A stretch of DNA of 64,000 nucleotides from an uncultured Actinomycetes bacterium (GTDB taxonomy: Bacteria > Actinomycetota > Acidimicrobiia > IMCC26256 > PALSA-610). Both the position numbers and the translations under genes were made by a program. Location: NCBI GenBank assembly GCA_963701825.1, contig CAVPBG010000002.1, forward strand, positions 731,669 to 795,668, written 5' to 3'. Below, piece by piece: positions 5,071 through 48,349 of the stretch (its first letter is position 1; the number at the start of each line of letters is the position of its first letter). The notes beneath the pieces were generated by a model, which was given only the letters and a program-made list of their open reading frames with translations, searched no databases and was not told the origin of the DNA.

Positions 5071-5083
5071 CCGCCGGACTGCC

Positions 5084-14319: not shown

Positions 14320-14372
14320 TCCACACCCCGAAATCCAGTCACGCCAGTTCGTTCGACTGTATGGTCTATGTG

Positions 14373-14400: not shown

Positions 14401-14404
14401 CTAT

Positions 14405-16126: not shown

Positions 16127-16153
16127 GCGCGGAGGCGCGGCCAGAATGCCGGC

Positions 16154-16642: not shown

Positions 16643-16719
16643 TCCGGCCGTCAGGCCCGGTCCGTACGGTTTCCCCGCAGGACCGACAAGCCATATGTGA
16701 CACGCGTCGCCCGCTCTCA

Positions 16720-16750
16720 ATCGAGTCTCGATGCCTGCCGTTAACAGGCA
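16720..16750. promoter_or_regulatory. two abutting palindromes upstream of secreted-protein gene (candidate operator)
   Basis: ATCGAGtCTCGAT (16720-16732) is a perfect 6+1+6 palindrome. TGCCTGccgttaaCAGGCA (16732-16750) has 6-bp arms. They lie 20-50 nt upstream of the GTG at 16771 and the GAGGGGGA RBS. Confidence 0.25.
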
Positions 16751-16770
16751 AACGCGATCGAGGGGGACCG

Positions 16771-28040: not shown

Positions 28041-29238
28041 CTAGCCGAGCTCGTTGCCGACGATGGAGACGAACGAGACCATCTCGCCGGGGTAGCCGCC
28101 GAGGTTGTGGGTGAGGGCCAGACCCCGGTCGGCATGCGCGATCGTGCGCTCGGCCGGCGCTTCGCCGCGCAGCTGCAGCCACGCCTCGAACACCATGCGC
28201 AGACCGGAGGCGCCGACCGGGTGGCCGAAGCTCTTCAGGCCGCCGTCGGGGTTCACCGGGAGTGCGCCTTCGAGGTCGAACGTGCCGTCGAGCACTTCCT
28301 TCCACGCGGTGCCGCGCTCGGCAAACTGCAGGTCTTCGTAGATGAGGAGCTCGGCGGGCGTGAAGCAGTCGTGCACCTCGGCCATCGCGAGTTGCTCGCG
28401 CGGGTTCGTGATGCCGGCCTGCGCGTACGCGTCGCGTCCGGTGGCGGCGATCTCGGGGAACGTCGTGTAGTCGTAATCCGGGTCGGCGTTGCCCGAGCAG
28501 TTGCCGGCGACGAGCGACAGCGCCTTGATGTAGATCGGCTTGTCGGTGTACTTCAACGCGTCTTCGGCGCGCACGATGATCGCGGCGGCGGAACCGTCGG
28601 CCACACCCGAGCAGTCGTAGACGCCGAGCCCGCCGGCCATGAGCGGCGCGTTGCAGATGGTCTCCATCGAGACCTCTTTGCGGAACTGCGCCCGCGGGTT
28701 ACGCGCACCGTTGTAGTGGTTCTTCCACGCGATGCGGGCGAGGACCTCGCGCATCTGCGCCTCATCGAGGCCGTACTTCTTGCCGTAGCCGGGCGAGCAC
28801 ATTGCGAACATCGCCGCCGCGGTCAGCGTGCGGCCGGTGCCGTCGGTCGGTGTCTTGGCCGCGCCGACGAGCCCTTGGTAGCCGCTGTCCTTGACCTTCT
28901 CGACGCCGATCGCCATCGCCACGTCGTACGCGCCGCTCGCCACGGAGTAGGCCGCGTTGCGCAACGCTTCCGATGCAGTCGCGCAGAAGTTCTCGACGTG
29001 GGTCACCGGCTTGTCGTGCAACTGCAGTGGGCGGGCGAGCGCCATGCCGCTCATGCCCGACATTGCGGTACCGAGCCAGTACGCGTCGATGTCTTCCTTC
29101 TTGAGCCCGGCCGACGGCCAAGGTGGCTTCGTTGGCGTCGACGAGGAGATCGTCGGTGCCCTTGTTCCAGTGCTCACCGAACGGCGTGCAACCCATGCCG
29201 ACGATGGCAACGCGGTCTTTGATGCCGTGCGAACCCAT
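28041..29238 (-). pseudogene. SCP-x/Ltp-type thiolase-like protein; apparent frameshift
   Basis: The N-terminus MGSHGIKDRVAIVGMGCTPFGEHWNKGTDDLLVDANEATLA (29238 frame) joins AGLKKEDIDAYWLGTAMSG... (29210 frame) by a net +1 shift near 29112. NFCATASEAL (active-site Cys), CSGVADGSAA and THNLGG are present. Confidence 0.85.
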
Positions 29239-29265
29239 GTGTGTTCTCCTTCGTTCCGCCCTGTC

Positions 29266-30677
29266 TCAGCGGACCGGGCGGGCCTTCCAGAAGTAGTTGT
29301 GGATCTCGTCCGAGGTGAAGAGCTTGCGGAACGTCATCTCGACGCGGTCACCGATCTTCAGCGTGTCGGCGTCGACGTCGGTGAGCTCGACCGGGAGCCG
29401 ACCACCGCCGTCCCAGTCGACGACCGCGAACGCGACCGGCGGACTCGGCGAGTACGCGATGCGGTCGATGGTGAGCAGCGCGATCGTGCCCTGCACGTCG
29501 GCCATCGGCGCGGGCGTCATGTCGTCGACCGCGTCGCCGACGCGCGAGACGCGGGCGGGCGGCATGTGCAGCTCGCCGCTCGTGCGGTCGCGGGAACCGA
29601 CGAACGCGTACTTCCATTCCTCGGTGCGGCCCGACACCGATGCCGAGATGCGATCGGGCTCCGGGCGCCGGGGCGGTTCGATGCGCACTTCGCCGCGCCA
29701 GCAGAGGAACTTTCCGTACGTGATGTCGGAGGCACCGTTCGATCTGGGCCGCGACCAGTGCGGGCCGGCGCGGTACGACGTGACCGCCTTCGTGGCGCGG
29801 AACAACATGACATCGGCGCCGTCGGCGAGCACGACCAGCGCGATCACCTGACCGGGTTCGGCGCTCTCGAGCGTGTCTGCGAGGAGCAGCGCCGCGTGCG
29901 CGCGTACCGGTGTTGCCGACCGTCGTGGCGCGATCGTCGACCAGGGCTTCCTTGGCCGTACCGAGCCGGCCGCTGATGGCGCGAGCCGCCCGGGCGTGCA
30001 TGCCGGTGACGATGACGCGTTGGATCTGGTCGGCGGAGAGATCCGTCGACTTCAGTGCCGCGTTCCAGGCCTGCTCGACCAGCGGGCCGTACTTGATCTC
30101 GCCGAAGCGCTCTTCCCAGGCCCGCGACCGCGTCGAGCCCGGAGTGCGCCAACGCTCGAGGAACTCCTCGGTCGTGCTCGCGCCGCCGAGGTATTCGGCG
30201 ATGACGGGGCCGTTCGAATCGTCGCCGATGAGCAGCGCGCCCGCGCCGTCGCCGGTGGCCGACTCGTCGCCACTCGTGGGGAGTCCGCCGCGCTGGTCGG
30301 AGGTGACGAGCAACACGGTGCCGCCACCGGTCGAGCGCGGTGCGCAGCGCGCCGATCGAAGACCGGAGCGCGCCGCCGAAGTCGAAGGCGGCGACGTCGG
30401 TGTCGAGTCGCAACGCCGCGTGCAGCGTCGACGCGTTGTTCTTGTCGAGGTACGCCGGCGACGCGGTCGAGAACCAGAGCGCGTCGGGCGCGGTACCACC
30501 GGGGGCGCTGCGCAGCGCGAGCCGCGCCGCCTCGACACCCATAGTGGTGGTGTCCTCGTCGTAGGACGCGACCGAACGGGTTCCCTTGCCGCCGCCGCTC
30601 CCGAAGGTCTTGGCGATCTCGGACCGTTGAAGGCGCCGGAAGGGCACGTAGCCGCCGGCGCTGATGATGCCTCGCAT
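29266..30677 (-). pseudogene. HMG-CoA synthase/KAS-III-like protein fused to C-terminal DUF35 OB-fold domain; apparent frameshifts
   Basis: Three frame segments are involved: MRGIISAGGYVPFRRL...GALRSSIGALRTAL | GGGTVLLVTSDQRGG...TTVGNTG | AHAALLLADTLESAEPGQVIALVVLADGADV...OB-fold (GTIALLTIDRIAYSP..VELTDVDADTLKIGDRVEMTF). The net +1 shifts are near 30340 and 29900. Confidence 0.75.
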
Positions 30678-30740
30678 GGCCCGGAGTCTATGACGCCGAT
30701 GTCAGCTCCACGAAAGCCGTGCTTGCCGCCGAACGTCGCT

Positions 30741-31901
30741 TCAGGTGGCGCACTGCCGGAGCCAACCGGCTTTGGAGATCTCTTGCGTGTCCAGCGCGAT
30801 CTCCGCGGCAGCGGGGCAGAGATACGTGGCCGGCCCGAGGTGTATCCGGAGTTCGGGTAGCCACGAATCGGGTCCGTTCAGTCCGTGAACCGCCTGCACG
30901 AGACCCGGGCTCCAGAACGTGTCGGAGAGTGTCTTTCCGACGTGCCAGGCGAAGCTGTCGCGAGCCGACTTGGCCGGTCGCGTCGACGGCGCGTAGGAGA
31001 AGGCGGCGTCAATGGTGTTCTCGGCCGTGCTGAACGTCAACGCGGTGAGCTTCGGATCGGCTTGCGCGCCCAGCTGCGCCGCGAGGTGTGCTTGATCACC
31101 ATCGAAGACAGCCTTGTTGCCGGCGACGGCATCCGACTCGCCGACCGGCCCCAGCGTCGTCGTGGTGGTCGTGTTCGGATAAAGGTTGTCGCCGGGTAAG
31201 AGCCGTTGCACCTCGTCGCTCGGCGGCGCCACGATTGCGGCAGTTTCCGTTCCCCAAATGAGCGTGAGGTCGGTGTCCTGCTCGCCGGGATGCAGTTCGG
31301 AAGCAGTATCGAGCTCTCCCATCTGTCCGTTCGAGTCGATCGACGCGGTGAAGATCTCGGTCGCCTTCGATGTGAGGCCGGGGAGTCGAAACTCGATCTT
31401 TGTCGGTCCGTCGCCTTCGGTGCTGATGACGCGCACCGCGGTGATGGGATGCCTCAGGAGTTGATCCAGCACGGTGAATACGAAACCGGGCTGCACACTG
31501 ATGACGCTCGGGATGGGGAGCTCGTGTGTCGTGCGTGCACCCGCAAATGCCACCCAGTTGGCGCTCGGGTTGAGGCGTTCTGGTCGCGCGACTGCAGAAC
31601 CGATAGCGACGTAGGTCGATCCACTCACGAATCGGGTTTCGAACGGCGGATAGGTAGCGGGATCCTTTGCATCGGATGTAACGATGGACGCGTCGCGCGC
31701 TCGGGGTTCGATCACGCCGGTGAACGTGACCAGATCGGTTCCGGACTCGCTCAACGACCCGCGCAACGCGGCACCTTCAGCCGACGAAGCGCGCTTCGCC
31801 GCCGATCGCAATTGATCGACCGGGCTGACGCTGAATCGCTGCGACGCGCAGCCCACCGTGACCAGGGCAACCGCGACCAAGAGCGCGCACAGTTGCTTCA
31901 T
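30741..31901 (-). CDS. lipoprotein, hypothetical
   Basis: MKQLCALLVAVALVTVGCAS is a lipobox signal. 386 aa, intact, with no recognised domain. GC is visibly lower than in the neighbours. Confidence 0.75.
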   Translation of the reverse strand: MKQLCALLVAVALVTVGCASQRFSVSPVDQLRSAAKRASSAEGAALRGSLSESGTDLVTFTGVIEPRARDASIVTSDAKDPATYPPFETRFVSGSTYVAIGSAVARPERLNPSANWVAFAGARTTHELPIPSVISVQPGFVFTVLDQLLRHPITAVRVISTEGDGPTKIEFRLPGLTSKATEIFTASIDSNGQMGELDTASELHPGEQDTDLTLIWGTETAAIVAPPSDEVQRLLPGDNLYPNTTTTTTLGPVGESDAVAGNKAVFDGDQAHLAAQLGAQADPKLTALTFSTAENTIDAAFSYAPSTRPAKSARDSFAWHVGKTLSDTFWSPGLVQAVHGLNGPDSWLPELRIHLGPATYLCPAAAEIALDTQEISKAGWLRQCAT

Positions 31902-31962
31902 TGTGATCGAACCACGTCGACATGATGGCCCACTGCGTCAGGGGTTACCGCAATGCGGGTGG

Positions 31963-32484
31963 TTAGGACGCAGTGCTGCGCGCGACGAGGTCGGACAGGT
32001 GCTGCAGCGAGTTGGCGAGGTGGTCGGGCACGAACGGCGGGAATTGGAGGTACTCGCGCACCTCGGCCGGGACTGCGGACCAGTCGTAGGTCAGCGTCAC
32101 CGTCGTGCGCGACGGGCCGGTCGGCTCGAGGTCGTAACGCCAGGTCCATTCGCCGAAGCTGAGCTCTCCGGTCTCGGGCGACTCATTCCCGGGCTTCCAC
32201 GCGATCGCTCGTGGCTCGTCGAACACCTCGACCAGGTTGGCGATCTTGTAGTCCTTGTCGGGGTGGTTCGGGTGGTGCATCGCCATGCGGAACACCTGGC
32301 CGGCCGCGGTGATGCGATCGCCGTCGAGGGAATCGCGCACCCAGCCGGTGCCGTCGATCGCGGCATGGGCCGACGGGTCGGCCAGCACGGCGAATACCGC
32401 CTCGGGGGAGGCTTCGATCGTTATGGACGCGTTGACGCTCTCGTTTGTCATACCCGTAAGACTGCTTACCGGGTCGGAACTCAT
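31963..32484 (-). CDS. SRPBCC (polyketide cyclase/dehydrase-like) family protein
   Basis: SVNASITIEASPEAVFAVLADP is a typical SRPBCC start. The start is either the ATG at 32484 (MSSDP) or the ATG at 32451 (MTNES). Confidence 0.8.
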   Translation of the reverse strand: MSSDPVSSLTGMTNESVNASITIEASPEAVFAVLADPSAHAAIDGTGWVRDSLDGDRITAAGQVFRMAMHHPNHPDKDYKIANLVEVFDEPRAIAWKPGNESPETGELSFGEWTWRYDLEPTGPSRTTVTLTYDWSAVPAEVREYLQFPPFVPDHLANSLQHLSDLVARSTAS

Positions 32485-32489
32485 CGCGC

Positions 32490-33581
32490 CTATCCGTCGC
32501 GGGCGCGGGGTTGGGCGTCGTGCTTGTGTTCTTCGTCGTGGTGGTGCCAGCAGTAGAGCTTCATGTTGTCGAGGTCGGTGCGACCGTTGTGGGGTGAGCC
32601 GTACGGTCGCATGTGGTGGGCTTCGCAGCGGCTGGGGGGTTGGGTGCAGCCGGGGGCTTGGCAGTGGCCGTCGCGCAGTACCAATGCTTTCCACTGCGCC
32701 GCGGTCGCGGTACGTGTCGCGTGGCCGACGTCGAGGATCTCGGATTTGCCGGCCACGACGACGCGGGTGATGTCGCAGTCGCACATGATCCGCTCGAGCG
32801 TCGTGGCGGACAGACCGCGGTTCTGGCGCCGTTCGCTGCGGATGATGTCGAGCAGTTCGGGGGTGGCGCCGGGGTGTTCGTCGGCGTGGATCACATAGGT
32901 GACGTGGGGACGGGTGCCGTGCGCGGTGCCGACGTCACCGTGATTCAACGACTGGCGGAACAGGTTCGTCACGGCATCCGCGCGCCGTTGCGCGACGGTT
33001 CGGGCGTCGTCGGGGCGCAGGTCACGCTTCATCTCCGCGTTGATTGCGGCTTCGTGGATGTCGGCGGATTCGGGATCGAACAGCCCGTTCACGTTCAACA
33101 GATTGTCGAGACTCCGGGAGGCGTGGTAGCGGCGCCGGTCGTGAAGCTCGGCTTCGGACTTGGTACCACCGTCACCGTCGATCGCGTCGGTCACCCGCCG
33201 GACCACTCCGTGTAACACGCCCGGCCTCTCGATCAGCGCGACCCCGACGAGTGCGTCTTCGACCGGCGACATCTCCGCGGCGCGCTTACGGGTGAACGCG
33301 GTCGCGATCGTGCGGGCATGCTCGACCGAGATGTCGCCGGCACGCAACGCATCCGCAACGACGGGCAACTGTTCGAGTTTGCGGGCCAGGTGCACATGCC
33401 CGTGTGCGACGCCGGCATCCATCCGACACAGCGCCCCGACGGCCGAGCCCGCGCTCGCGAATCCGTCGGTGGCCCATTCGCCGGAGTGGTGGTACTCGGC
33501 GAGCTGTTCGAGCCAGGCCGCCTGAATGGCTTCGACCTCGCACCGCGCCTTGGCGAGCAACTCGCCCAGAGGGGAACACAT
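32490..33581 (-). CDS. DUF222 domain / HNH endonuclease signature protein (13E12-repeat-type)
   Basis: N-terminal DUF222-like helices are followed by a C-terminal HNH region, RDGHCQAPGC...CEAHHMRPY...NMKLYCWHHHDEEH. 363 aa, intact. Confidence 0.85.
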   Translation of the reverse strand: MCSPLGELLAKARCEVEAIQAAWLEQLAEYHHSGEWATDGFASAGSAVGALCRMDAGVAHGHVHLARKLEQLPVVADALRAGDISVEHARTIATAFTRKRAAEMSPVEDALVGVALIERPGVLHGVVRRVTDAIDGDGGTKSEAELHDRRRYHASRSLDNLLNVNGLFDPESADIHEAAINAEMKRDLRPDDARTVAQRRADAVTNLFRQSLNHGDVGTAHGTRPHVTYVIHADEHPGATPELLDIIRSERRQNRGLSATTLERIMCDCDITRVVVAGKSEILDVGHATRTATAAQWKALVLRDGHCQAPGCTQPPSRCEAHHMRPYGSPHNGRTDLDNMKLYCWHHHDEEHKHDAQPRARDG

Positions 33582-33670
33582 GTTCGTATCATAGTCGGAA
33601 AACTCCTATAAACAAAGAGGAAACCGACGACTTCCCGAACACCTTCGTCACCGCGCATGACGAAGGCATC

Positions 33671-34732
33671 ATGGTGTCGATGCCAATGCGAGCGGAGGTG
33701 ATCGCGGGTCGGCTTCGGGACTGGGGCTATCCCGATCTTCCGGTCGAACGGGAAGTGTTCGGGACCACGGATCCCGAAGCGCTCGCGGCCGCGGTGGACG
33801 ATTGGTGCCGTGCGCACCTGGGCGCCGCGATCGAGCGCTACAAGTTCTTCGACTCGAGCAGCGGCAGCGTGCACGGCCTTGTGCTGAGGGACGGGCGTTC
33901 CGTCGTCGTCAAAGGTCATCGCGCCGCCGTCTCGGCCGAGTACCTCGCCGCCGTCGCCGAGATTCAGGCCGCGTTGGCCGATACCGGGTACCCGGCACCG
34001 CGGCCTTTGGCCGGGCCCATCGCCGCGGGAACCGGCCACATCACCGCGGAGGTCATGCTCGCACGCGGACATGACGTCGACGGTCACGATCCGCTCGTGC
34101 GACGCGCGCTCGCCGCCGGTTTGGCGCAGTTCATCGAGCGCTGCGAAAGGCATCGCAGTGTTCTCGAGCGAGTTGCGGCGCCGATGGCAATCGCGCCCGG
34201 CTCCCTGTATCCCACGCCGCACTCGCCGCGTTTCGATTTTGCCGCGACGCAATCGGGTGCGGAATGGATCGACGAGCTCGCGGCCCGGGCGCAGACCCGA
34301 CTACGCGCGGTGCCGACCGTTCGACCCGTCGTCGTGCACGGCGATTGGCGGATCGAGAACGTCTGTGTTCGGGCGAACGAGCTTGTCGCTGTGTACGACT
34401 GGGACAGCGTGTATGTCGCACCGGAAACAACGGCAGTGGCCGCGGCGGCAACGACGTTCAGTGTCGACTGGCGCCAACGCGGCGGCAACCGTTTCCCGGG
34501 TCCACCGGAAATCGGCGCATTCATCTCGGAGTACGAGGTAGCACGCGGCGGCTTCACGTCCGCGGAACGCGACACACTCGTGGCGTCCATGGTCGCCTCA
34601 CTCGCGTACGGCGCGCGCTGCGAACACGCGAACGCGTCACAGCCTTCCTCGTTCGACGACACGCAACGCGGACTCCTCGACAGCATCGGCTCCACCCTGC
34701 TCGAGCACGGTCTCGGATCGTTGTACGACTGA
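33671..34732 (+). CDS. phosphotransferase (aminoglycoside/choline kinase-like fold) family protein
   Basis: The catalytic loop VVHGDWRIENV (HxDxxxxN) and a downstream YDWDS (DxD-like) are present. The ATG at 33671 follows an AT-rich divergent intergenic region. Confidence 0.8.
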   Translation: MVSMPMRAEVIAGRLRDWGYPDLPVEREVFGTTDPEALAAAVDDWCRAHLGAAIERYKFFDSSSGSVHGLVLRDGRSVVVKGHRAAVSAEYLAAVAEIQAALADTGYPAPRPLAGPIAAGTGHITAEVMLARGHDVDGHDPLVRRALAAGLAQFIERCERHRSVLERVAAPMAIAPGSLYPTPHSPRFDFAATQSGAEWIDELAARAQTRLRAVPTVRPVVVHGDWRIENVCVRANELVAVYDWDSVYVAPETTAVAAAATTFSVDWRQRGGNRFPGPPEIGAFISEYEVARGGFTSAERDTLVASMVASLAYGARCEHANASQPSSFDDTQRGLLDSIGSTLLEHGLGSLYD

Positions 34733-34735
34733 AAG

Positions 34736-35950
34736 CTAGGAACGCCCACGCGCGCCGACCGCACGTTTCGCCGCCGCGCCGAGATCGCCTCGGCCGGTCA
34801 CTTCGATGTGGTCGAACTCCAGCCACGACGCGATCAGGCGTAGCTCCGCCACCAACTCGGCCGCGACCTCGCGCTGATCGACATCAGGCTCGGCCCACGC
34901 GCTCTGGACGAGCAGCGCGCCGTTCGCGCGGTCGGCCTTGAGGTCGACGCGACCGACGAGCGAGTCGCCGAGCAGGAAGGGCAACACGTAGTAGCCGTAT
35001 TGCCGTTTGGGCGGCGGGACGTAGATCTCGATTCGATAGTGGAACCCGAACATGCGCAACGCCCGCTCGCGCCGCCACACGATCGGGTCGAACGGGCTCA
35101 ACACCGCGCGCGCCTCGACTCGACGCGGCATCCGTGCCGAGGCGGGCATATACGCGGGCCGATCCCACCCGTCGACGGCGACGACGAGCAGCCGACCCTC
35201 TTCGATGAGCTCGGCCAGCTGCGGTTTGCACAGCGTCGGTTTGAGCCGGTGATAGTCCGCGAGATCATTGAGCGTGCCGATGCCGTGATACTTGGCCGCG
35301 AGCACGAGCAGCTCCTTGCGCGCGTCTGCTGCCGACAACGCTGGCCGCCCCAACACCGACGGCGGGATGATCCGTTCGGTGAGGTCGTACACCCGCGCGA
35401 AGTCCCGCGGCCGGCGGCGTGCACTGACGCGCCCCAAGTAGAAGAGCGCCTCGAGCGCGCGCTTGCCGTCGTCGTGATCCCACCAACTGCCCTTCTTGCC
35501 GACCCGCGCGTTCAGGTCGCCGGCAACCATGGGCCCTTCGGCAGCGACGCGTCGGTACACCTCTTCGATGTAGCTGCCCTGCGCCTCCATGTACTGCCGG
35601 AAGCCGGGCCACGGATGCGGGTGGCTCATCCGCCAACGGTGCAGCGGGTATTGCTCCATCGGGACGAGGCTGGCCTCGTGCACCCAGTACTCGAACAGCT
35701 CGTCCGCGCGCGTCGCGTCGTCGATCAGCGTGCGCGGGTGCGCGCCGAGCCGGGCGAACAACGGCAACTCCTGGCTCCGCACCAACACGTTGACCGAATC
35801 GATCTGGATGAGCCCGATCCGGTCGAGCACCCGGCGGAGATGACGCCGATCGACGCGCCCGGTCGGGCGCGCATCGGTGAACCCTTGTGCCGCGAGCGCG
35901 ATCCGTTTCGCCTGCGCGTTGGAGAGGGTGACGGCGCGGCGAGTAGTCAG
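34736..35950 (-). CDS. winged-helix DNA-binding, YcaQ-like (DUF1006) DNA glycosylase family protein
   Basis: The conserved N-terminus LSNAQAKRIALAAQGF...GLIQIDSVNVL is present and the body is full-length. No ATG, GTG or TTG precedes the conserved N-terminus. The 5' end given here is a CTG overlapping the EthD stop, so the start is uncertain. Confidence 0.75.
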   Translation of the reverse strand: MTTRRAVTLSNAQAKRIALAAQGFTDARPTGRVDRRHLRRVLDRIGLIQIDSVNVLVRSQELPLFARLGAHPRTLIDDATRADELFEYWVHEASLVPMEQYPLHRWRMSHPHPWPGFRQYMEAQGSYIEEVYRRVAAEGPMVAGDLNARVGKKGSWWDHDDGKRALEALFYLGRVSARRRPRDFARVYDLTERIIPPSVLGRPALSAADARKELLVLAAKYHGIGTLNDLADYHRLKPTLCKPQLAELIEEGRLLVVAVDGWDRPAYMPASARMPRRVEARAVLSPFDPIVWRRERALRMFGFHYRIEIYVPPPKRQYGYYVLPFLLGDSLVGRVDLKADRANGALLVQSAWAEPDVDQREVAAELVAELRLIASWLEFDHIEVTGRGDLGAAAKRAVGARGRS

Positions 35951-36234
35951 CCGACGATCTCGGCGGTCTGAATCACCGGCGCGATCGACGTGTAGTTCGC
36001 GACGTCGGCCATCACGTCGCCGGTTCCGGCGGCACCCAACGCGGCGTTGAACGCGTCGACGGAATCGAAGGTGAAGTGCACCGCGGCGACATACGGACCG
36101 TCGATGCCCTTGTCGATCTCGGTCGAGACCGGGCTCCACGTCTTCACCGCGAGCGGCACGTGCTGGTTGCGGTAGTAGTCGTGGTCGAAGGTTGCGCCTT
36201 CGGTGGTCGGATAGAAGACGCTGAATCGCATCAT
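35947..36234 (-). CDS. EthD family reductase
   Basis: 95 aa. MMRFSVFYPTTEGATFDHDYYRNQHVPL is the typical EthD start. Confidence 0.8.
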   Translation of the reverse strand: MMRFSVFYPTTEGATFDHDYYRNQHVPLAVKTWSPVSTEIDKGIDGPYVAAVHFTFDSVDAFNAALGAAGTGDVMADVANYTSIAPVIQTAEIVG

Positions 36235-36331
36235 CGTGGTCGCCTCTCGTCACGAATTGCCGGGGATGGTTCGCCAATTATGTCCGGTCCCGCCTTCGGC
36301 TGCCGGGGTGGGCGATCCCTAATCTGCACGG

Positions 36332-37581
36332 ATGCGGCTCGGAGACATCGCGAACGAAGAAGCACAGCAGTACGGCAAGCCGCTCGACGGCGTGCGCGTG
36401 CTCGCGGCGGAGCAGATGCAGGCGTTGCCGTACGCGACGCAACTCCTCGCCCGGCTCGGCGCCGAGGTCGTCAAGGTCGAGCACCCGGTGCACGGTGAGT
36501 CGGGGCGGGCGTCGTCGCCGGCCATGCTCGATCCCGACGGCCGCAAGGTCGGCGCCACCTACCTGCGCAACAACTTCAACAAGCGCAGCGTCGGGATCGA
36601 CCTGAAGCTGCCCGAAGGCCGCGAGCTCTTCCTCGCCCTCGTGCCGAAGTTCGACGTCGTCGCCGAGAACTTCAAGCCCGGAACCATGGACCGCATGGGT
36701 CTCGGTTACGACGTGATCTCGAAGACCGATCCCCGCGCCATCTACGTGTCGATCTCGGGCTTCGGCAACACCGTCGAGACGCCGTACCGCGACTGGCCCG
36801 CGTACGCGTCGATCGTCGAGGCGATGTCGGGTATCTACGACTACCGCCATCCCGACGAGCCGCCGGTGACGATTCCCGTCGGCGCGTTGGGCGACATCAG
36901 CTCCGCGCTGTTCGGCGTGATCGGGATCCTGGCCGCGCTGCGCCACCGTGATCACACCGGGGTCGGTCAGTACGTCGACATCGCGATGTTCGACGCGATG
37001 GTTGCCATGACCGACATCGTCACCAACTTCTGGTCGCTGGGCGTGCGTCCCGAACCGGGCAAGGGGCTCGAGGTCATCTGCGAAGGGTTCCGTGCGTCCG
37101 ACGGTTTCGTCGTCGCGCAGATCGTGCGCGAGCACCAGTTCTGGAACCTGGGCGACCTCGTCGGGCATCCGGAATGGCGCGACGATCCGCGCTTCTCGAC
37201 GCGCGCGGGATGGGCGGCCGCGTCTCGAGTCGGAGATCCGGCCCGCGGTCGACGCGTGGGCGGCGCAAGCACACCAAGCTCGAAGCGGCGCGCGCGCTCA
37301 CCGAGGCGGGGGTGGTCGCGGGCCCGAGCAACCACGCCTCCGACGTGATCACCGATCCGCACGTCGCCGCCCGCCACATGCTCGTCGAGATGCCGCGCAC
37401 CGACGGTGTCTCCGACCCGGTGCTCGTCCCGGGCAATCCGGTCAAGCTCTCGAAGATGAGCGAAGGCCCCGAGACACGCGTGCCGTGGGTGGGGGAGCAC
37501 ACCGCCGCGGTGTTGGCCGCGGAGCTCGGCCTGACCGACGCCGATCTCGCCGGTCTCCGCGAACGCGGCGTCATTTCCTGA
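36332..37581 (+). pseudogene. family III CoA transferase (CaiB/BaiF-like); apparent frameshifts
   Basis: GVRVLAAEQMQALPYATQLLARLGAEVVKVE and DVVAENFKPGTMDRMGLGY are present. The C-terminus is split: ..RFSTRAGWAA | RLESEIRPAVDAWAAQ | HTKLEAARALTEAGVVAGPSN...GVIS*. The net +1 shifts are near 37220 and 37270. Confidence 0.85.
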
Positions 37582-37620
37582 CTAGGCGGCCGCCGGGTCG
37601 GCTCTCGTACAATCCGGCGC

Positions 37621-38827
37621 ATGGACTTCGATTTCTCGCCCGAGCAGCGCGCCTTCGAACAAGAGGTCATCGAGTTCCTCGACGAGCACGACGACCCCGA
37701 CGTGTTCGACCTGACCCGCGAGAACATGGCGCAGATCGTCGACACGCCCAAGCGCCGCGCCTTCATGGCAGGCCTGGGCGAGCGGGGTTGGCTCGGCCTC
37801 ACCTGGCCGAAGGAGTACGGCGGCTCCGAGGGCGAGGGCGTCTACGAGTACCTCCTCAACGAGCAGCTCGCGGCGCGCGGCGGCCCGCAGATCGGCAAGG
37901 GCGTCGGCATCATCGGCAAGACGCTCATCAAGGAGGCGAGCGAGCAGATGAAGCAGGAGTTCCTGCCGCAGATCCTGCGCAACGACGTGGAGTTCGCGGT
38001 CGGCTACAGCGAGCCGAACGCGGGCTCCGACGCGGCGTCGATGCGGCTCAAGGCCGAGCGCGGCGAACGCGACGGCAAGCCGGGCTGGATCCTCAACGGC
38101 CAGAAGACGTGGACCACCTCCGCGCACTTCGCCGAGTGGTACTGGCTCGGCACGCGCACCGATCCCGACAACAAGCACATGGGCATCACGCTCATGCTCG
38201 TGCCGCTCGACCAGCCCGGCGTCACCATCAAGGGCATCTGGACGATGGGCGACGAGCGCACCAACGAGGTCTTCATCGAAGACGTGTTCGTGCCCGACGA
38301 GTACGTGGTCGGCGAGGTCAACCACGGCTTCCAGTACATCTCGCAGGCGCTCGACCTCGAGCGGTTCACGATGTTCACGTTCTCGCCGATCAAGCAGCGC
38401 CTCGACCTGCTGATCGACTACGTGAACACCACGACGCGCGACGGCGTGCCGCTCCGCGACGACCCGGTGGTCCGCCAGCGGATCGCGCAGCTCGTCACCG
38501 ACGCCGAGGTCGCGCGCGTGCTCGGGCTTGAAGGTGGTCGCGGCGTCGATGAAGGGCGAGAAGGTCCCGGGCACGCCGCCGCCGACGGTCGAGTCGTCGA
38601 AGTACAAGCTGTTCGCCACCGAGTTCTCGCGGCGGCTCGCGAGCGCGTCGATGGACATCGGCGGTCCCGGCACGCAGCTGCGCGTGCGCACGAAGACCGC
38701 GCCGATGGAGGGCCGGGCCGAGTCGACGTACCGCTACACCGTGATCGACACGATCGGCGGCGGCGCGTCGGAGATCCAGAAGAACATCATCGCCCGCCGC
38801 GGGCTCGGTCTCCCGAAGAACTTCTGA
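37621..38827 (+). pseudogene. acyl-CoA dehydrogenase (FadE-like); apparent frameshift
   Basis: MDFDFSPEQRAF.., GYSEPNAGSDAAS and QKTWTTSAH are present. The C-terminal helical domain continues in the +1 frame from about 38528 (..EVARVLGL | KVVAASMKGEK...YTVIDTIGGGASEIQKNIIARRGLGLPKNF*). Confidence 0.85.
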
Positions 38828-38831
38828 CGCC

Positions 38832-39992
38832 GTGCTGCAAGGGCGTGACGGTTCTCGATCTCGCGTCGGTCGGCCCGGCCGCGCGCACGTCGCGCTGGCT
38901 GGCCGACTACGGCGCGCGCGTCGTGAAGGTCGGCCCGCCGCCGAAGCAGTCGGGCGTGCAGATCGTGCCGCCGTTCTACGCGTACAGCGGGCACCGCGGC
39001 ATGGAGCGGGTCCTGCTCGACCTGAAATCCGATTCCGGCCGCGACGCGTTCCTCCGCCTGGCCGCGAACGCCGACGTGGTGATCGAGAGCTTCCGGCCCG
39101 GCGTGATGGACCGGCTCGGCATCGGCGACGCGGCGGTGCGCGCCGTGAACCCCGCCATCGTCTACTGCTCGACGAGCGGCTACGGCCAGACCGGTCCGCG
39201 CTCGCAGTGGGCCGGCCACGATCTCAACTACCTCGCGGTCGGCGGCTACCTCGACTGCTCCGGGCCGCGACGCCGACGGTGGTCCCGCGCTGCCCGGGCG
39301 CGACGATCGGCGACGCCGCGGGCGGCGGGATGCAAGCGGTGATCGCGATCCTCGCCGCGCTCGTGCAACGCGCCGCGACCGGCGAGGGCGCGTACCTCGA
39401 CGTCTCGGTCGCCGACGGAGTGGTCGCGCTCATGTCGCTGTACGTCGACGAGTACTTCGCGACCGGCGAGGTGCCGGGTCCGCGCCACAACATTCTCACC
39501 GGCCGCTACGCGTGTTACGACGTGTACCGCTGTGCCGACGACAAGTGGATCGCGGTGGCGGCGATCGAGCCGCACTTCTACGCCAACCTGTGCCGCGCGC
39601 TCGGCTGCGAGCAGTGGCTCGCGCACCAGACCGACGACGCGGTGCAGGACGCGATCCGCGCCGACTTCCGCGCGGCCATCGCCGACTCGGACGCGCGACG
39701 AGTGGGTCGCGCAGCTCGGTCCGGCCGACACGTGTGTGTCGGAGGTGGCGTCGGTTCCCGAGCTCGTGCACGACGCGCACCTGCGGGCCCGCAACGTGTT
39801 CGTCGAGGCGACCGCGCCGGAGCACGGGGAGTTTCGAGCAGGTCGGCTGGGTGCTCGCGGGCATGGACCGCGACCAGCCCGGTCCGGTGGTGCGCGACGC
39901 GACGATCACCGACACCGACGCGCTGCTTGGCAGAGGTCGGCTACTCGGCCGCGGAGATCGCGGCACTACGCGAACAGGGGGTTGCGGCATGA
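38832..39992 (+). pseudogene. family III CoA transferase (alpha-methylacyl-CoA racemase-like); about six apparent frameshifts
   Basis: Sensible segments alternate frames: MLQG | VTVLDLASVGPAAR...GHDLNYLAVGGYLDCSGP | ADGGPALPG | ATIGDAAGGGMQAVIAILAAL...ADFRAAIA | RTRDEWVAQLGPADTCVSEV...EHGEF | EQVGWVLAGMDRDQPG...DALL | AEVGYSAAEIAALREQGVAA*. The shifts are near 38843, 39270, 39297, 39686, 39833 and 39930. Confidence 0.8.
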
Positions 39993-40509
39993 GCGATTCC
40001 GATCTGCCGCCGGACGTCGAGAAGCTGATCGACCAGGTGCAGTACGAGGAGACCGGCGAGTTCCCGGTCGAGCAGCGGCTACATCTGGACGACGTGCTCG
40101 TCGGTCGAGAACGGCAACCCGCTGTTCTGGGACGACGATGTCGCCGACGAGATCACCGACGGCCCGATCGCGCCGCCGACGATGATCTCGGTGTGGTTCC
40201 GGCCGCACCAGTGGGCGCCGGGCCGCACCGAGCCCGCGGTGCCGCTGCAGGTGCACTTCGACCTGAAGCGAGATCTTCGAGCTGCCGGAAGCGGTCATGA
40301 CCGACAACACGATCGTGTTCCACGAGCCCGTCCGCCCCGGCGACCGCTTGCGCACGCGCCAGATCCTGCGCTCGGTCAGCGAGCCGAAGACGACCAAGCT
40401 CGGCACCGGCCGGTTCTGGGTGATCGAGGTCGAGTACCTGAACCAGAGCGACGAGCTCGTCGGCGTCGAGTCGTACACCGGTTTCGGCTACCGCCGAGGT
40501 GAGTCGTGA
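39989..40509 (+). pseudogene. MaoC-like/FAS1-like dehydratase N-type hot-dog subunit (ChsH1-like); apparent frameshifts
   Basis: There is an ATGA overlap with the upstream gene. The segments are MSDSDLPPDVEKLIDQVQYEETGEFPVEQ | GYIWTTCSSVENGNPLFWDDDVADEITDGPIAPPTMISVWF...HFDLKR | IFELPEAVMTDNTIVFHEPVRPGDRL...GFGYRRGES*. The shifts are near 40075 and 40270. Confidence 0.75.
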
Positions 40510-40992
40510 GCACCACGGCGACGACCCTCAAACTCGGCGACGTGAAGGTCGGCGACGCGTTGCCCGAGCTCGCGTACCCCGTGACGGCCACGACGGTCGT
40601 GCTCGGCGCGCTCGCGGCGCGCGACTGGCGCCCGATGCACCACGACTACGACTTCGCGGTGAACCGCAACGGCACGAAGGACATCTTCATGAACACGCCG
40701 AACCAGGCCGCCTGGTTCGAGCGGTATCCTCACCGACTGGTCGGGTCCGACCGGCCGGCTCGGGCGGATGAAGTTCCGCATGAAGGGCTCCGTGTTCCCC
40801 GGCGACACGATGGTGCTGGCGGGCATCGTCGAGTCCGTCGAGACCGACGACGTGGGGTGCGGCTGGGCGAACGTGCTCGTGCGCCTCACCGTCGACGGCG
40901 ACCTCAAGACCGACTGCACCGCGCGTATCGCGCTGCCGACCACCGACGACGACAACCCCTGGACCCGCCGCGGCGACCAGTGGAAACCGTAG
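40506..40992 (+). pseudogene. MaoC family dehydratase hot-dog subunit (ChsH2-like, no DUF35); apparent frameshift
   Basis: MSTTATTLKLGDVKVGDALPEL...RPMHHDYDFA...AAWFERY | LTDWSGPTGRLGRMKFRMKGSVFPGDTM.... There is one net +1 shift near 40727. It overlaps the previous gene by 4 nt. Confidence 0.8.
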
Positions 40993-41010
40993 GGATGTAG
41001 GAGACACACG

Positions 41011-42142
41011 ATGGATCTCGATCTCAACGAAGAGCAGGAGATGCTGCGCGAGATGGTGCGCGGCGTCTGCAGCTCGTACGCGCAACCTCGAGACGGTGCG
41101 CGCGCTCGAGGACGATCCCGTCGGGTACCCGGCCGAGCTGTGGAAGCAGATGGCCGCGCTCGACCTGATCGGGCTGATGGTTCCGGCCGCGTACGGCGGC
41201 TCGGAGATGAGCGCGCTCGAAGGCGCGGTCGTCTACACGGAGCTCGGGCGCGCGCTCGCGCCGTCGCCGCATTTCGTCAGCGCGGTGATGGGCGCGGGCG
41301 TGTTGCTGCGGGCCGGGACCGACGAGCAGAAGCAGTCGTGGCTGCCGCGCATCGTCTCCGGCGACGCGATCGTGACGACGGCCTGGCTCGAGCCCGGCAA
41401 CGGCTTCGGCCCGCGCGGCGTGCAGACGCGGGCCGTCGCCGACGGCGACGGCTTCGTGCTCGACGGCGTGAAGTGGCACGTGCCGTTCGCCAAGGCGGCG
41501 ACCGCGATGATCGTGCTCGCCCGGACCGGTGATGCCGACTCCGACGTCGACCTGTTCCTCGTCGATCCGGATGCGGCCGGGGTCACGCTCGAGCAGCAGC
41601 TGACGATCGCGTCGGACACGCAGTACGAGGTCACGTTGGCGGGCGTGCGCGTGCCGGCCGCGGCTCGCATCGGCGCCGCGGGTACGGGCTGGGCCACGTG
41701 GAACGAGACCATGCTCGACGGTGTCGATCATGCTCGCGGCCCAGGCCGTCGGCGGCGCACGCTACGCGCTCGACATCACCGTGCAGTACGCCAAGGACCG
41801 CGAGCAGTTCGACAAGCCGCTCGGCGCGTTCCAGGCGATCTCGCACTACCTCGCCGACGCGGTGACCGCGGTCGACGGCGCCGAGATGCTCGTGTACGAG
41901 GCCGCGTGGGCGCGCGCCGAACGGCAAGCCCGATCGACCGGCTCGCGCCGATGGCGAAGCTGTTCGCGTGCAAGACCTTCCGCGACGTCACCGCGATGGC
42001 GCAGCAGGTGTTCGGCGGCGTCGGCTTCACGGTCGAGTACGACATCCAGCTCTACTTCCGCCGGGCCAAGCAGCTGCAGATCTCGTGGTGGGACGACCGC
42101 GCGCTCGAGGAGCTCGTCGCGGGATCGGTGTTCGGCAGCTAG
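41011..42142 (+). pseudogene. acyl-CoA dehydrogenase (FadE-like); three to four apparent frameshifts
   Basis: MDLDLNEEQEMLREMVRGVCSSYA | NLETVRALEDDPVGYPAELW...TWNETMLDGV | IMLAAQAVGGARYALDITVQYAKDREQF...EAAWARAE | ..PIDRLAPMAKLFACKTF...WWDDRALEELVAGSVFGS*. The shifts are near 41081, 41725 and 41920-41930. The last is either one -1 event or two +1 events. Confidence 0.8.
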
Positions 42143-42150
42143 GGCCGATC

Positions 42151-42744
42151 GTGGCCGCCCGGCTCGCCCGGATCGACGACGCTGATGCGATCACCGAGAC
42201 GATCGCGACCGCGTTCTTCAACGATCCGCTGTGGAGTTGGGCCTTCAACGACGAGACGCGGCGAGCCGAGCAATACCGCGTGTGGTGGCGCGTCTTCGTC
42301 GACTCGTCCTATCGCAACCAGTTCACGTGGGTCACGCCCCAATGCGAGTCGGTCGCGGTCTGGGTGCCGCCGGGCGGCTCCGAGATCACGCCGGCCGAGG
42401 AACGGCACCTCGTGGATCTGGTCGGTGAGTTCATGGCGGGCGATCACGCCAACGCCGTGTTGGCGCTGCTCGACCGCTTCGAGGCCGCGCACCCGCACGC
42501 CGAGCCCCACTACTACCTGAGCATCGTCGCCACGCACGACGACCACCGCGGACGCGGGACGGGTGAAGCGCTGCTCGCGGAGAACCTGACACGCGTCGAC
42601 GCCGAACACATGCCCGCGTATCTCGAGTCGAGCAATCCCGCGAACGTGAAACGGTACCGACGTCTGGGCTTCGAACCGATCGGTGAAATCTCGGTGCCCG
42701 ACGGGCTCCCCGCGGTGACCACGATGTGGCGCAGCGCCCGCTGA
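42151..42744 (+). CDS. GNAT family N-acetyltransferase
   Basis: The GTG at 42151 gives MAARLARIDDADAITETIATAFFNDPLWSW. The acetyl-CoA motif HRGRGTGEALL is present. Intact. Confidence 0.8.
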   Translation: MAARLARIDDADAITETIATAFFNDPLWSWAFNDETRRAEQYRVWWRVFVDSSYRNQFTWVTPQCESVAVWVPPGGSEITPAEERHLVDLVGEFMAGDHANAVLALLDRFEAAHPHAEPHYYLSIVATHDDHRGRGTGEALLAENLTRVDAEHMPAYLESSNPANVKRYRRLGFEPIGEISVPDGLPAVTTMWRSAR

Positions 42745-45925: not shown

Positions 45926-47328
45926 CCCTGACCGAGCTGCCGAGCGCCGCGCGCACAGAGCCGGGCCGCCGCCTTTCCGATCGGGCGGTCGCGCGCGTGA
46001 CCGCCCGCTTCGGTCGGCGGAGTCCGGTGACCCGGCGGAGCTTTCTCGTGCGCACCGCGATCTTCGCCTCGGCGTTGGTAGTCAACCCGCTGCGTTACAT
46101 CCTCCGGCCGGGCACGGCGTACGCGTCGTTGTGCGGCGGCGATCCGTCGTGCGGTTCGGGCTGGACCGCGTTCTGTTGCACGGTGAACGGCGGGCAGAAC
46201 ACGTGCCCACCGGGGTCGGCGCCCGCGGGTTGGTGGAAGGCTGACAACTCGTCGTTCTGCAACTCCGGTCCGCGGTTCTACATCGACTGCAACGCGTCGT
46301 GCGGCGGGTGCGGATGCGGTGGGAGCGGCCTGTGCGGAGGGGGCTGCGGCGGCTGCAACTGTCACTGCGCGGGCGGCGAGTGCGACGACCGCGTGACGTG
46401 CTGCAACGAGTTTCGCTATGGGCAATGCCATCAAGAGTTGGCGTGTGTGGGCCCGATCGTGTGTCGCGTGGTCACCTGCGTCGCGCCCTGGGACTTCGAC
46501 GCCACCTGCACGACCACGAGCGCAACCGCGAACGCCACGGCGTTGCACGACGTGCCGTGCCTGCACGAGTTCAGCTCGTCGGTGCTCGCGTTCGGTGCCG
46601 CGGCCGACCACGGTGCGCCGAAGGGTCCGCTGTCGGTGCCCATCGTCGGCATCGAAGCGACTCGGAGCGGTTCCGGCTACTGGCTCGTGGCGCGCGACGG
46701 CGGGGTCTTCTCGTTCGGCGACGCACCGTTCCACGGATCGCTCGGCGGGCAGCACTTGAGTCAGCCCATCGTCGACATCGCCCGCACGCCGAACGACGGC
46801 TATTGGTTGGTCGCCTCGGATGGGGGAGTGTTCTCGTTCGGCGACGCGCGCTTCTTCGGCTCGACCGGCGCCATCCGTCTCAATCAGCCGATCGTCGGGA
46901 TGGCCGCGACGCCGACGGGTCGGGGCTACTGGTTGGTTGCGTCGGACGGCGGCATCTTCTGTTTCGGCGACGCGCGCTTCTTGGGTTCGATGGGCGGCGA
47001 ACATCTCAATCGGCCCATCGTGGGGATGGCGGCGACGCCGACCGGTCATGGCTATTGGTTGGTCGCGTCGGATGGTGGCGTGTTCTGTTTCGGCGATGCG
47101 CGCTTCGCCGGTTCGTCGGGCGGTATCCACCTGAACCGGCCGGTGGTCGGCATGGCCGCGACGCCGACGGGCAAGGGCTACTGGTTCGTCGCGGCCGACG
47201 GCGGCATCTCCGCGTTCGGCGACGCGCACTTCCTGGGTGGCGGGAACACGCGGCTGCACGCGGGGAGCGCGACCGATCTCGCAGCGCGGCCCGATGGTCG
47301 TGGCTACTGGATCGCCACCGATACGTAG
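45922..47328 (+). CDS. Tat-signal, Cys-rich (24 Cys, MADH-light-chain-like?) domain fused to ~6-blade GYWL-DGG-F-FGDA repeat propeller
   Basis: A twin-arginine motif (TRRSFLVRTAIFASALVV) is followed by about 150 aa with 24 Cys, including NTCPPGS and CGGCGCGGSGLCGGGCGGCNCHC. Repeats then start at 46675, 46798, 46924, 47050, 47176 and 47302. Confidence 0.85.
   Translation: MTLTELPSAARTEPGRRLSDRAVARVTARFGRRSPVTRRSFLVRTAIFASALVVNPLRYILRPGTAYASLCGGDPSCGSGWTAFCCTVNGGQNTCPPGSAPAGWWKADNSSFCNSGPRFYIDCNASCGGCGCGGSGLCGGGCGGCNCHCAGGECDDRVTCCNEFRYGQCHQELACVGPIVCRVVTCVAPWDFDATCTTTSATANATALHDVPCLHEFSSSVLAFGAAADHGAPKGPLSVPIVGIEATRSGSGYWLVARDGGVFSFGDAPFHGSLGGQHLSQPIVDIARTPNDGYWLVASDGGVFSFGDARFFGSTGAIRLNQPIVGMAATPTGRGYWLVASDGGIFCFGDARFLGSMGGEHLNRPIVGMAATPTGHGYWLVASDGGVFCFGDARFAGSSGGIHLNRPVVGMAATPTGKGYWFVAADGGISAFGDAHFLGGGNTRLHAGSATDLAARPDGRGYWIATDT
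46675..47310 (+). repeat. intragenic tandem DNA repeat, period 126 bp (one 123-bp unit), about 5 copies
   Basis: GGCTA(C/T)TGG unit starts at 46675, 46798, 46924, 47050, 47176 and 47302. Units 2-4 are near-identical at nucleotide level, for example ggctattggttggtcgc(c/g)tcggatgg. Confidence 0.75.
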
Positions 47329-47356
47329 GTTTACGGCTCGTCGCCTGACTTCGAGA

Positions 47357-48349
47357 TCAGTGACCGTGCGCCCGGGCCGACACCGAGCGCACGACCGCAC
47401 GCCCGATCGTGTCGGTGGCGCGGCCGAGCGTCGAAAGGTTCGGCCGTAGCCGCACGCCCCAGAGCGCATCGCGTACGGCGGCCCGGCGCCGACCGCCCGC
47501 GAGATGGTTGGCGGCGTTGCCCAAGGCGTAGTCGGAGAGCACGATGCGCGCCGCGGCGCGCGCCCACTCCCGGGTCGGCGGGTCGTCGACGCGGGCCACG
47601 TTGATCTCGATCGCGCGTAACACGTCACGGACGTACTCCGACGATTGTTGGACCAGCGCGCTGTCGGACGCGCCGTGCCGGCGGTAGTACGCGTGCGGCT
47701 GCGCGACCCATCCGATCGGGCCCGCAGTGCTGAGGCGTGTCCACATCTCCCAGTCGTTGGCGTGCACGAGCGTGGGGTCGAAGCCCCCCACGGCCTCGTA
47801 GGCCCAGCGCGCGACGGCCGTCGAGGCGAAGTTGCACGGATGCCGGGCCGCGATCGTCGCCGTCGGATCGTGCAACAGCTCGTCATCGACGGATACGACC
47901 GGTGAGACACCGAACCATTCGCCGCGCTCGTCGATCCAGATCGCCTGGCCTCCGACCGCGGCGCACTCTGGGTGGCGGTCGATCACGCCGCGGTAACTCT
48001 CGTAGAAGTCGGGTTGCACCGCATCGTCCGCGTGCAGGATGTGGACCCACGATCCGGTCGCGCGGCGCACACACTCGGTGAAGTTGGCGGGCGCGCCGAG
48101 ATTGCGCGAGTTCGTGTGGAACTGCACCCGAGGTGCGAAGCGTCCCGCGAGCGCCGTGACGTCGGCCGCGTCGCCGTCGTTCACAACCTCGATCTGCATG
48201 TCGGACGGGCCGATCCCGGCGGCGAGGACGCTCTCGATCGCGACGCGCAACAATTCGGGATCGGTCCGATAGGTCGGGATCATCACCGACCAGAACGGTC
48301 GCGCGACGTCGTCGGGGACAGCGGCGATGATCGGGAGCCCGGCACTCAT
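47357..48349 (-). CDS. family 2 glycosyltransferase (GT-A fold)
   Basis: The ATG at 48349 gives MSAGLPIIAAVPDDVARPFWSVMIPTYRTD. VVNDGD and ILHADD (DxD) are present. An ATGA overlap joins it to the upstream gene. The N-terminal 293 aa of the 623-aa track ORF are spurious. Confidence 0.85.
   Translation of the reverse strand: MSAGLPIIAAVPDDVARPFWSVMIPTYRTDPELLRVAIESVLAAGIGPSDMQIEVVNDGDAADVTALAGRFAPRVQFHTNSRNLGAPANFTECVRRATGSWVHILHADDAVQPDFYESYRGVIDRHPECAAVGGQAIWIDERGEWFGVSPVVSVDDELLHDPTATIAARHPCNFASTAVARWAYEAVGGFDPTLVHANDWEMWTRLSTAGPIGWVAQPHAYYRRHGASDSALVQQSSEYVRDVLRAIEINVARVDDPPTREWARAAARIVLSDYALGNAANHLAGGRRRAAVRDALWGVRLRPNLSTLGRATDTIGRAVVRSVSARAHGH

Follow-up and report, generated by a model that had tools for sequence, protein, structure and literature searches.

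Whether a catabolic operon whose every gene is interrupted in the public record has decayed in its host or only in its assembly is the question raised by positions 36332-42142 of a 64-kb stretch of DNA (here called the window; G+C ~69%) from an uncultured Acidimicrobiia bacterium. This block holds six co-directional genes on the + strand, all of them broken as deposited, and the deposited record (a 1,694,303-bp contig, at NCBI and ENA) carries a frameshifted 573-aa acyl-CoA dehydrogenase (ACAD) product together with an out-of-frame tail. An earlier reading of the letters alone (the original prediction) placed 15 to 16 frame breaks in these 5.8 kb and offered two explanations, namely, poorer underlying data than in the surroundings or an insertion-biased mutational process acting on a whole catabolic module. 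Alignment to relatives recovered 16 breaks, and we conclude that they are very probably consensus errors of metagenome assembly in genes that are intact and under selection in the bacterium.

The closest relatives of the window in a species-level genome collection are uncultured Acidimicrobiia metagenome-assembled genomes (MAGs) of the Iamiaceae/Microthrixaceae type, not mycobacteria. A multiple DNA alignment of positions 36300-42200 was built against five to six orthologous loci, and frame changes were checked by three-frame translation and by tblastn with open reading frames (ORFs) of the syntenic loci L001, L004, and L010; tblastn of the relatives' stop-free ORFs against the window was usable, if cluttered by off-frame ORFs of high G+C. 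Two much closer relatives were aligned later; each break was pinned to one base. One of them, L081, is a sister species or genome on a 4.69-Mb contig with 89% nucleotide identity to the window over 18.6 kb; the other, L085, is the closest relative and comes from a separately deposited assembly (ENA ERZ25039538), with 96.06% identity over 21 kb. A further genome, L082, served as the outgroup for changes on the window branch versus the L081 branch. Frame breaks over the whole window were counted with a codon-model Viterbi segmentation combined with alignments; this replaced a plot of G+C content at third codon positions (GC3), which was too noisy for strand calls, and since the segmentation fuses close pairs, its count is an undercount. 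Pfam domains were assigned on the corrected proteins, i.e., after removal of the 16 extra bases.

Each of the six genes contains at least one extra base, as had been claimed, with 2, 1, 6, 2, 1, and 4 window-specific single extra bases in genes 1 to 6, respectively (Table 1). The lesions are of one sign only: all 16 are +1 insertions (sign test, 3e-5), and neither a window-specific deletion in coding sequence nor an in-frame stop was found in the ~1,900 codons aligned against the five to six orthologues. Once the 16 bases are removed, six complete ORFs appear, each with one terminal stop. In gene 3, where about six frame changes had been predicted, six extra bases were indeed found; the expected pair of close breaks is also there, at 39262 and 39296, and so is spaced by 34 nt and not by the ~27 nt (39270 and 39297) first given. 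The break at 38844 sits just after the GTG start of this gene, where the window reads GTG CTG CAA GGG C GTG and its relatives read ATG CTC GAC GGC GTC. After correction, the product of gene 3 (384 aa) aligns along 100% of its length with proteins that are also 384 aa long, with identities of up to 96%. Twelve of the 16 extra bases are also private with respect to both L085 and L081, while three to five seem common to the window and L085.

The identity of the inserted bases points to their origin. In 13 of 16 cases the inserted base equals the state that a relative carries at the adjacent site (null, 0.33; P = 1e-4), and the excess persists when only the two nearest relatives serve as the reference (5/12; null, 0.07; P = 9e-4); the same test on the insertions of L081 gave 13/24 (null, 0.21; P = 4e-4). 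The two alleles that each insertion implies are synonymous more often than expected, both in the window (11/16; null, 0.41; P = 0.025) and in L081 (16/23; null, 0.46; P = 0.02), for a total of 27/39 (null, 0.44; P = 0.001). Homopolymers are extended by only 5 of the 16 extra bases in the window and by 5 of 23 in L081, that is, by 10/39 against a random expectation of 0.51 (P = 0.001), and this depletion led us to reject homopolymer slippage as the sequencing error. The artifact reading of the original prediction is supported and sharpened: the window seems to show both alleles in tandem at sites that vary among close relatives. Two other candidates were considered along the way. Programmed +1 frameshifting was set aside, as the 16 sites share no common motif and the orthologues are unshifted, and a fine-scale mosaic of L085-type and L081-type sequence was rejected, as the three-way site patterns (286/141/106/14) fit an ordinary tree with private changes on its branches.

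We propose that reads of at least two closely related populations would have piled up together wherever their sequences were similar enough and that, at some substitution sites, the consensus step would have emitted both alleles side by side, with GTC and GTG, for example, becoming GTCG. Each such double call would add one base and shift the frame. Consensus models that penalize a mismatch more heavily than a missing base would favor the two-base string, as one deletion then explains each read class. Double calls of this kind would account for the insertion-only bias, the avoidance of homopolymers, and the signature of synonymous single-nucleotide polymorphisms (SNPs), as well as for patchiness linked to local divergence and conservation and for the recurrence of some of the calls in two assemblies. 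The assembler metaFlye has been reported to collapse strains of ~98.6% identity into one consensus (PMC8302730), and indel errors in long-read consensus sequences and their effect on gene calling have been described (PMC9262707). A large catalogue of MAGs from Danish soils rests on Nanopore data alone, assembled with metaFlye and polished in a single Medaka round (PMC12313526); it includes many Acidimicrobiia relatives, and the window may come from it. The breaks resemble the indel errors of Nanopore-only genomes and MAGs in that assembly-specific single-base indels fragment intact, conserved ORFs while sister assemblies are hit elsewhere. They differ from classic Nanopore errors, which are homopolymer indels, in being insertion-only, depleted in homopolymers, and located at polymorphic, mostly synonymous sites, and we did not find a tandem-allele signature described in the papers that we read on Nanopore-only MAG pipelines and strain collapse.

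The placement of the errors is informative as well. About 33 frame breaks were found in the 64-kb window, and the block has 16 where ~3 are expected (Poisson P = 1e-7). When the aligned sequence is cut into 49 bins of 400 bp, the count of extra bases (in the window or in L085) follows that of the substitutions between the two (Spearman correlation, 0.80; P = 8e-12), which are mostly synonymous. From 30.9 to 35.7 kb the two sequences are 99.8% identical, and neither has a single-base insertion there; the sole indel is a 2-nt CG at 34304-34305, present in the window and L081 and missing in L085, which resembles either slippage in a repeat or an erroneous deletion in L085. This interval (30900-35700) is an accessory stretch with DUF222/HNH, APH-like, and AlkZ-like genes; its flanks differ by 3 to 6.5% between the window and L085, and it is the least conserved stretch relative to L081 (79 to 87%). 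Recent exchange or a recent sweep may account for this island, or both consensus sequences may be uncontaminated here and nowhere else. The two verified patches of extra bases in the window (the block and a second patch at 29114..30332) are exactly the stretches that are most L081-like, with 92 to 96% identity versus 79 to 91% in between and in the flanks.

The sister assemblies show this defect too, mostly elsewhere. In L081, ~35 private +1 bases crowd its positions 13889-18166, opposite window positions 42.7 to 47.0 kb, where the window ORFs are intact, and further extra bases are scattered over 10 to 27 kb; this assembly is more error-laden overall than the window. L082 carries its own set of private +1 bases. 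In L085, ~22 private extra bases fall in the same six genes, mostly elsewhere than those of the window, and ~33 lie opposite 24.1 to 27.9 kb (the helicase region). The sister contigs bear Flye-style names, and the public gene calls on them are fragmented because of the extra bases. The gene calls of the L081 genome (L084) break the UvrD-like helicase that lies at ~27548 in the window into four pieces.

Several points weigh against this explanation and keep it short of certainty. We infer the consensus mechanism, mixed pile-up included, from its products, and we likewise infer a long-read origin of the contig (Flye/Medaka type, Nanopore only). The three to five extra bases apparently common to the window and L085 (39296-9, 39683-92, 39825, and 40269-71 and, in the second patch, 30332) require that double calls recurred at the same polymorphic sites. 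The relatives'-state signal was only in part replicated in other assemblies, being weak for private insertions of L085 (4/20; null, 0.07; P = 0.055; and 5/32; null, 0.10; P = 0.2). Three of the sites (38524, 39262, and 39296) could equally be extensions of G/C runs. Finally, local divergence alone fails to predict the errors, because the window is free of extra bases at 22.6 to 27.9 and 42.2 to 43.5 kb despite a 4 to 6.5% difference from L085 there; an added role for similarity to a third population in placing the errors is our conjecture.

Among the alternatives, ordinary random long-read indel noise in low-coverage stretches, unrelated to polymorphism, fares best, and even so we regard it as unlikely. 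Nanopore-only MAGs do keep indel errors at low coverage (PMC9262707, PMC12313526), the breaks are patchy, and several sites lie in short G/C runs. Such noise, however, should also produce deletions and favor homopolymers, whereas the lesions here are insertions without exception and homopolymer extension falls to about half of its random expectation. Nor would it explain why inserted bases match the adjacent-site state of relatives, why the allele pairs are enriched in synonymous ones, or why the counts track substitution density.

Genuine pseudogenization, in which an insertion-biased mutational process inactivated a whole catabolic module in this lineage, is more doubtful still. The ratio of nonsynonymous to synonymous substitution rates (dN/dS) of the reconstructed genes against orthologues, a comparison proposed with the original prediction, was 0.02 to 0.23 throughout. 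Against L081 it ranged from 0.02 to 0.11, as low as or below that of intact flanking genes, and against L085 from 0.06 to 0.23 at a synonymous divergence (dS) of 0.11 to 0.24, without stops; gene 1, for instance, gave 0.06 versus L081 and 0.14 versus L085, and gene 2 gave 0.02 and 0.06, respectively. With L082 as the outgroup, private changes on the window branch number 17 for amino acids and 90 for synonymous codons, fewer than on the L081 branch (39 and 155), on which the genes are mostly intact. The six genes are under purifying selection and are not decaying. Had 16 real frameshifts accumulated, the genes would have evolved neutrally for a long time and hence gained stops, deletions, and many nonsynonymous changes; none of these were seen, and larger lesions are absent as well from the ~1,900 codons.

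In favor of decay, the extra bases do stand in the deposited record, every gene of one functional module is affected, and the block is also interrupted in L085, apparently in part by extra bases that the window has too. A shared lesion, however, must have existed across the entire divergence between the window and L085, and because dN/dS between the two is low, the shared bases are not ancestral lesions. Most L085 insertions lie elsewhere, L081 has a comparable patch in unrelated genes, and a mutational process cannot know which base relatives carry at the neighboring site. Bacterial mutation is deletion biased, so that 16 insertions out of 16 are not expected from natural decay. The likeness to reductive pseudogenization of the Mycobacterium leprae type, in which many neighboring metabolic genes are interrupted by frameshifts, goes no further, as genuine decay brings deletions and stops along with insertions, under relaxed selection, whereas the window shows +1 changes only, no stops, and a dN/dS well below 1. 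The insertion-biased process put forward in the original prediction is not supported by these results, and we reject it.

If two paralogous clusters of a single genome, and not two populations, had been collapsed, the same double-call signature would be expected, and Acidimicrobiia and other actinobacterial genomes often hold several ACAD/hydratase clusters; we nevertheless consider this very improbable, as no second copy was found in the 64-kb window or in the relatives' loci of 21 kb and as unrelated genes are also affected (ATP-grasp/transglutaminase and amidohydrolase genes and, in sister assemblies, UvrD). There is an equally slim chance that the extra bases are real, having arisen in a very recent burst of +1-only mutation in the conserved catabolic genes of the lineage of the window and L085, with no trace in dN/dS yet.

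Table 1. Genes of the block, extra bases within them, and other patches of frame breaks in the window (inserted base in square brackets; positions of extra bases are approximate; aa lengths are those after removal of the extra bases)
Position	Strand	Feature	Detail
36332..37581	+	Gene 1, CoA-transferase family III	2 extra bases; 415 aa
37224	+	Extra C, T[C]TC	TTC (Phe) in L081/L082/L085; CTC/CTG (Leu) in L006/L001
37266	+	Extra C, GCG[C]AAG	GCG/GCC, synonymous Ala
37621..38827	+	Gene 2, ACAD, ChsE4/FadE26 type	1 extra base; 401 aa
38524	+	Extra G, CTC[G]GGC	CTC/CTG, synonymous Leu
38832..39992	+	Gene 3, alpha-methylacyl-CoA racemase-like CoA-transferase III	6 extra bases; 384 aa
38844	+	Extra base, CAAGGG[C]GTG	L081 GGG, L085 GGC (Gly); window has both in tandem, GGGC
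39262	+	Extra base, TCC[G]GGCCGC	TCC/TCG or GGG/GGC, both synonymous pairs
39296	+	Extra base, CCC[G]GGCGCG	CCC/CCG or GGG/GGC; same extra base in L085
39683	+	Extra C, ATCGC[C]GAC	GCC/GCG, synonymous Ala
39825	+	Extra C, GAGCA[C]GGGG	CAC (His) in L010/L006/L001; CAG (Gln) in L081/L082; same extra base in L085
39926	+	Extra C, CTG[C]TTG	L085 CTG, L081 CTC; window CTGC
39989..40509	+	Gene 4, hot-dog hydratase subunit (PF13452)	2 extra bases; 172 aa
40074..40076	+	Extra base, GAGC[A]GCGG	L085 CAG, L081 CGC; window CAGC
40271	+	Extra base, AAGCG[A]GATC	CGA/CGG, synonymous Arg; same extra base in L085
40506..40992	+	Gene 5, MaoC-type hot-dog hydratase subunit	1 extra base; 161 aa
40726	+	Extra A, GGT[A]TCC	TTC (Phe) in L081/L082/L085; TAC (Tyr) in L010/L006/L001; window TATC
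41011..42142	+	Gene 6, ACAD (Pfam domains)	4 extra bases; 375 aa
41082..41083	+	Extra base, TACGC[G]CAAC	L085/L082 GCG, L081 GCC; window GCGC
41726	+	Extra G, GTGTC[G]ATC	L085 GTC, L081 GTG; window GTCG
41918	+	Extra C, GCGCGCGC[C]GAAC	GCG/GCC, synonymous Ala
41933	+	Extra A, CCCG[A]TCGAC	GTC (Val) in L081/L082/L085; ATC (Ile) in L010/L001
29114..30332	-	Second patch, six window-specific +1 bases in 1.2 kb (29114, 29738, 29757, 29772, 29904, 30332)	Thiolase and DUF35/OB-fold genes; tblastn, three-way alignments
4878-6573		~five +1 breaks	Circularly permuted ATP-grasp / alpha-E / transglutaminase three-gene operon
60161-60835	-	~four breaks, three of them +1	One amidohydrolase-like gene

Beyond the block, breaks recur in a few further patches, so that its description as the epicenter of the frame breaks holds by count and not by density: the stretch at 29.1 to 30.3 kb has six in 1.2 kb, and those at 4.9 to 6.6 and 60.2 to 60.8 kb are similar. 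At 4878-6573, two breaks 46 nt apart fall inside a conserved SLVVNSSQGGG-KDTWVL motif; positions there are inexact for want of a close relative. Single candidate +1 breaks were seen at ~952, in a metallo-beta-lactamase-fold-like gene, and at ~27548, in a UvrD-like helicase gene. The window is essentially clean at 10.5 to 27.5 and 42.2 to 54.8 kb. Two of its segments, 16646-19112 and 47327-50424, are absent from the L081 genome; positions 18.4 to 19.0 kb show repeated similarity of 69 to 76% to 46.6 to 47.3 kb, which suggests that a predicted repeat-containing protein family is present twice in the window.

On the corrected proteins, Pfam bore out the gene order and the domain calls of the original prediction, with complete or nearly complete domain coverage for genes 1 to 4 and 6 and a partial, subthreshold match for gene 5. 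PF02515 covers gene 1 over model positions 1-366/366 (E = 1e-91), and gene 2 has three ACAD domains, its nearest solved structures being ChsE4/FadE26 of M. tuberculosis (4X28_A; E = 8e-57) and Tcur3483 of Thermomonospora curvata (6WY8_B). Gene 3 matches PF02515 (E = 9e-91) and the racemase MCR of M. tuberculosis (1X74; E = 5e-62). Of the two hot-dog proteins, gene 4 matches the ChsH1/ChsH2 chains 4W78_A and 4WNB_A (E = 2e-5), and gene 5, whose partial PF01575 match scores 21.8 bits, under the 27-bit cutoff, matches chains 4WNB_B and 4W78_B (E = 1.4e-14). The best matches of gene 6 are generic short-chain ACADs, followed by Tcur3481 (6WY8_A; E = 3e-42) and ChsE5 (4X28_D; E = 2.5e-36). The 4-nt overlaps said to join the genes exist at two of the five junctions (ATGA at 39989-39992 between genes 3 and 4 and GTGA at 40506-40509 between genes 4 and 5); the other three junctions are gaps of 39, 4, and 18 nt.

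An Ltp-type thiolase and a DUF35 protein had been placed at 28 to 30.7 kb, and a thiolase and a DUF35/OB-fold protein do span 28.0 to 30.7 kb, the thiolase at 28044-29300 on the minus strand, 7 kb from the block; the orthologues of the pair have the Pfam domains Thiolase_N, Thiolase_C_1, and OB_ChsH2_C. The pair is parted from the six genes by 5.6 kb (30700-36300), an insert that more distant relatives (e.g., L010) lack; there, thiolase/DUF35 adjoins the block in divergent orientation. Judged by homology, the enzymes of the corrected operon most likely perform a single round of beta-oxidation on an alpha-methyl-branched acyl-CoA, e.g., that of a sterol or isoprenoid side chain. In this scheme, gene 1 would most likely serve in CoA transfer or activation and gene 3 in racemization of the 2-methylacyl-CoA, genes 2 and 6 most likely in dehydrogenation as an ACAD pair (possibly a heteromeric one), and genes 4 and 5 most likely as a two-subunit hot-dog hydratase, with cleavage by the nearby thiolase/DUF35 pair.

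The likeness to the mycobacterial igr/chs module drawn in the original prediction stands at the level of families (ChsE4, ChsH1/ChsH2, and MCR) and fails in ACAD adjacency, DUF35 fusion, and cyp125. The M. tuberculosis Chs enzymes, i.e., ChsE4-ChsE5 (FadE26-FadE27; 4X28), ChsH1-ChsH2 (4W78/4WNB), and MCR (1X74), have counterparts in genes 2, 6, 4 plus 5, and 3, and Tcur3481 and Tcur3483 of T. curvata (6WY8) are matched by genes 6 and 2, respectively. Compared with these systems, the order of genes differs, the ACADs being three genes apart, two CoA-transferase III genes are included, DUF35 is not fused to a hydratase subunit, the hydratase subunits are of low identity (gene 4 being the E = 2e-5 match), gene 6 is closer to generic short-chain ACADs, and the host belongs to an Acidimicrobiia lineage. 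The igr operon itself (Rv3545c-Rv3540c: cyp125, fadE28, fadE29, chsH1, chsH2, and ltp2) shares with the window a neighborhood that brings together two ACADs, a MaoC-type hydratase of two subunits, and the function of an Ltp-type thiolase with DUF35, and its adjacent chsH1-chsH2 pair has an equivalent in genes 4 and 5, which overlap by GTGA and correspond to the two chains in 4W78/4WNB. Other traits diverge. In igr, fadE28 and fadE29 are adjacent and form an alpha2beta2 ACAD, whereas the ACAD genes of the window (37621-38827 and 41011-42142) are separated by three genes; ChsH2 of igr has a C-terminal DUF35 that binds Ltp2, whereas genes 4 and 5 consist of hot-dog domains only and OB_ChsH2_C occurs in a separate protein beside the thiolase; and ltp2 lies within the operon, whereas the thiolase of the window lies at a distance on the other strand. 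Among solved ACAD structures, gene 2 comes closest to ChsE4, which lies outside igr, and no P450/cyp125 was found by Pfam among the six genes, the remainder of the window not having been searched for one. The cluster thus works, by its predicted enzymes, like the Chs enzymes but falls outside the definition of the igr operon, because its ACADs are nonadjacent, its hydratase subunits lack DUF35, and cyp125 is missing from the six genes.

If the extra bases are double calls, four marks characterize them: they are insertion-only, they avoid homopolymers, they set mostly synonymous SNP alleles in tandem, and their density follows the divergence between co-occurring relatives. Such a signature would let false pseudogenes in long-read MAGs be recognized and repaired without reads, and it suggests that conserved genes common to co-occurring relatives are the ones most at risk in long-read MAG catalogues. 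Annotators of the deposited record would call six pseudogenes and might infer the loss of a catabolic pathway. For the bacterium itself the finding would be a minor one, the block being most likely an ordinary, intact operon for side-chain beta-oxidation of the lipid/sterol type, of a kind found in many of the Acidimicrobiia MAGs that we retrieved.

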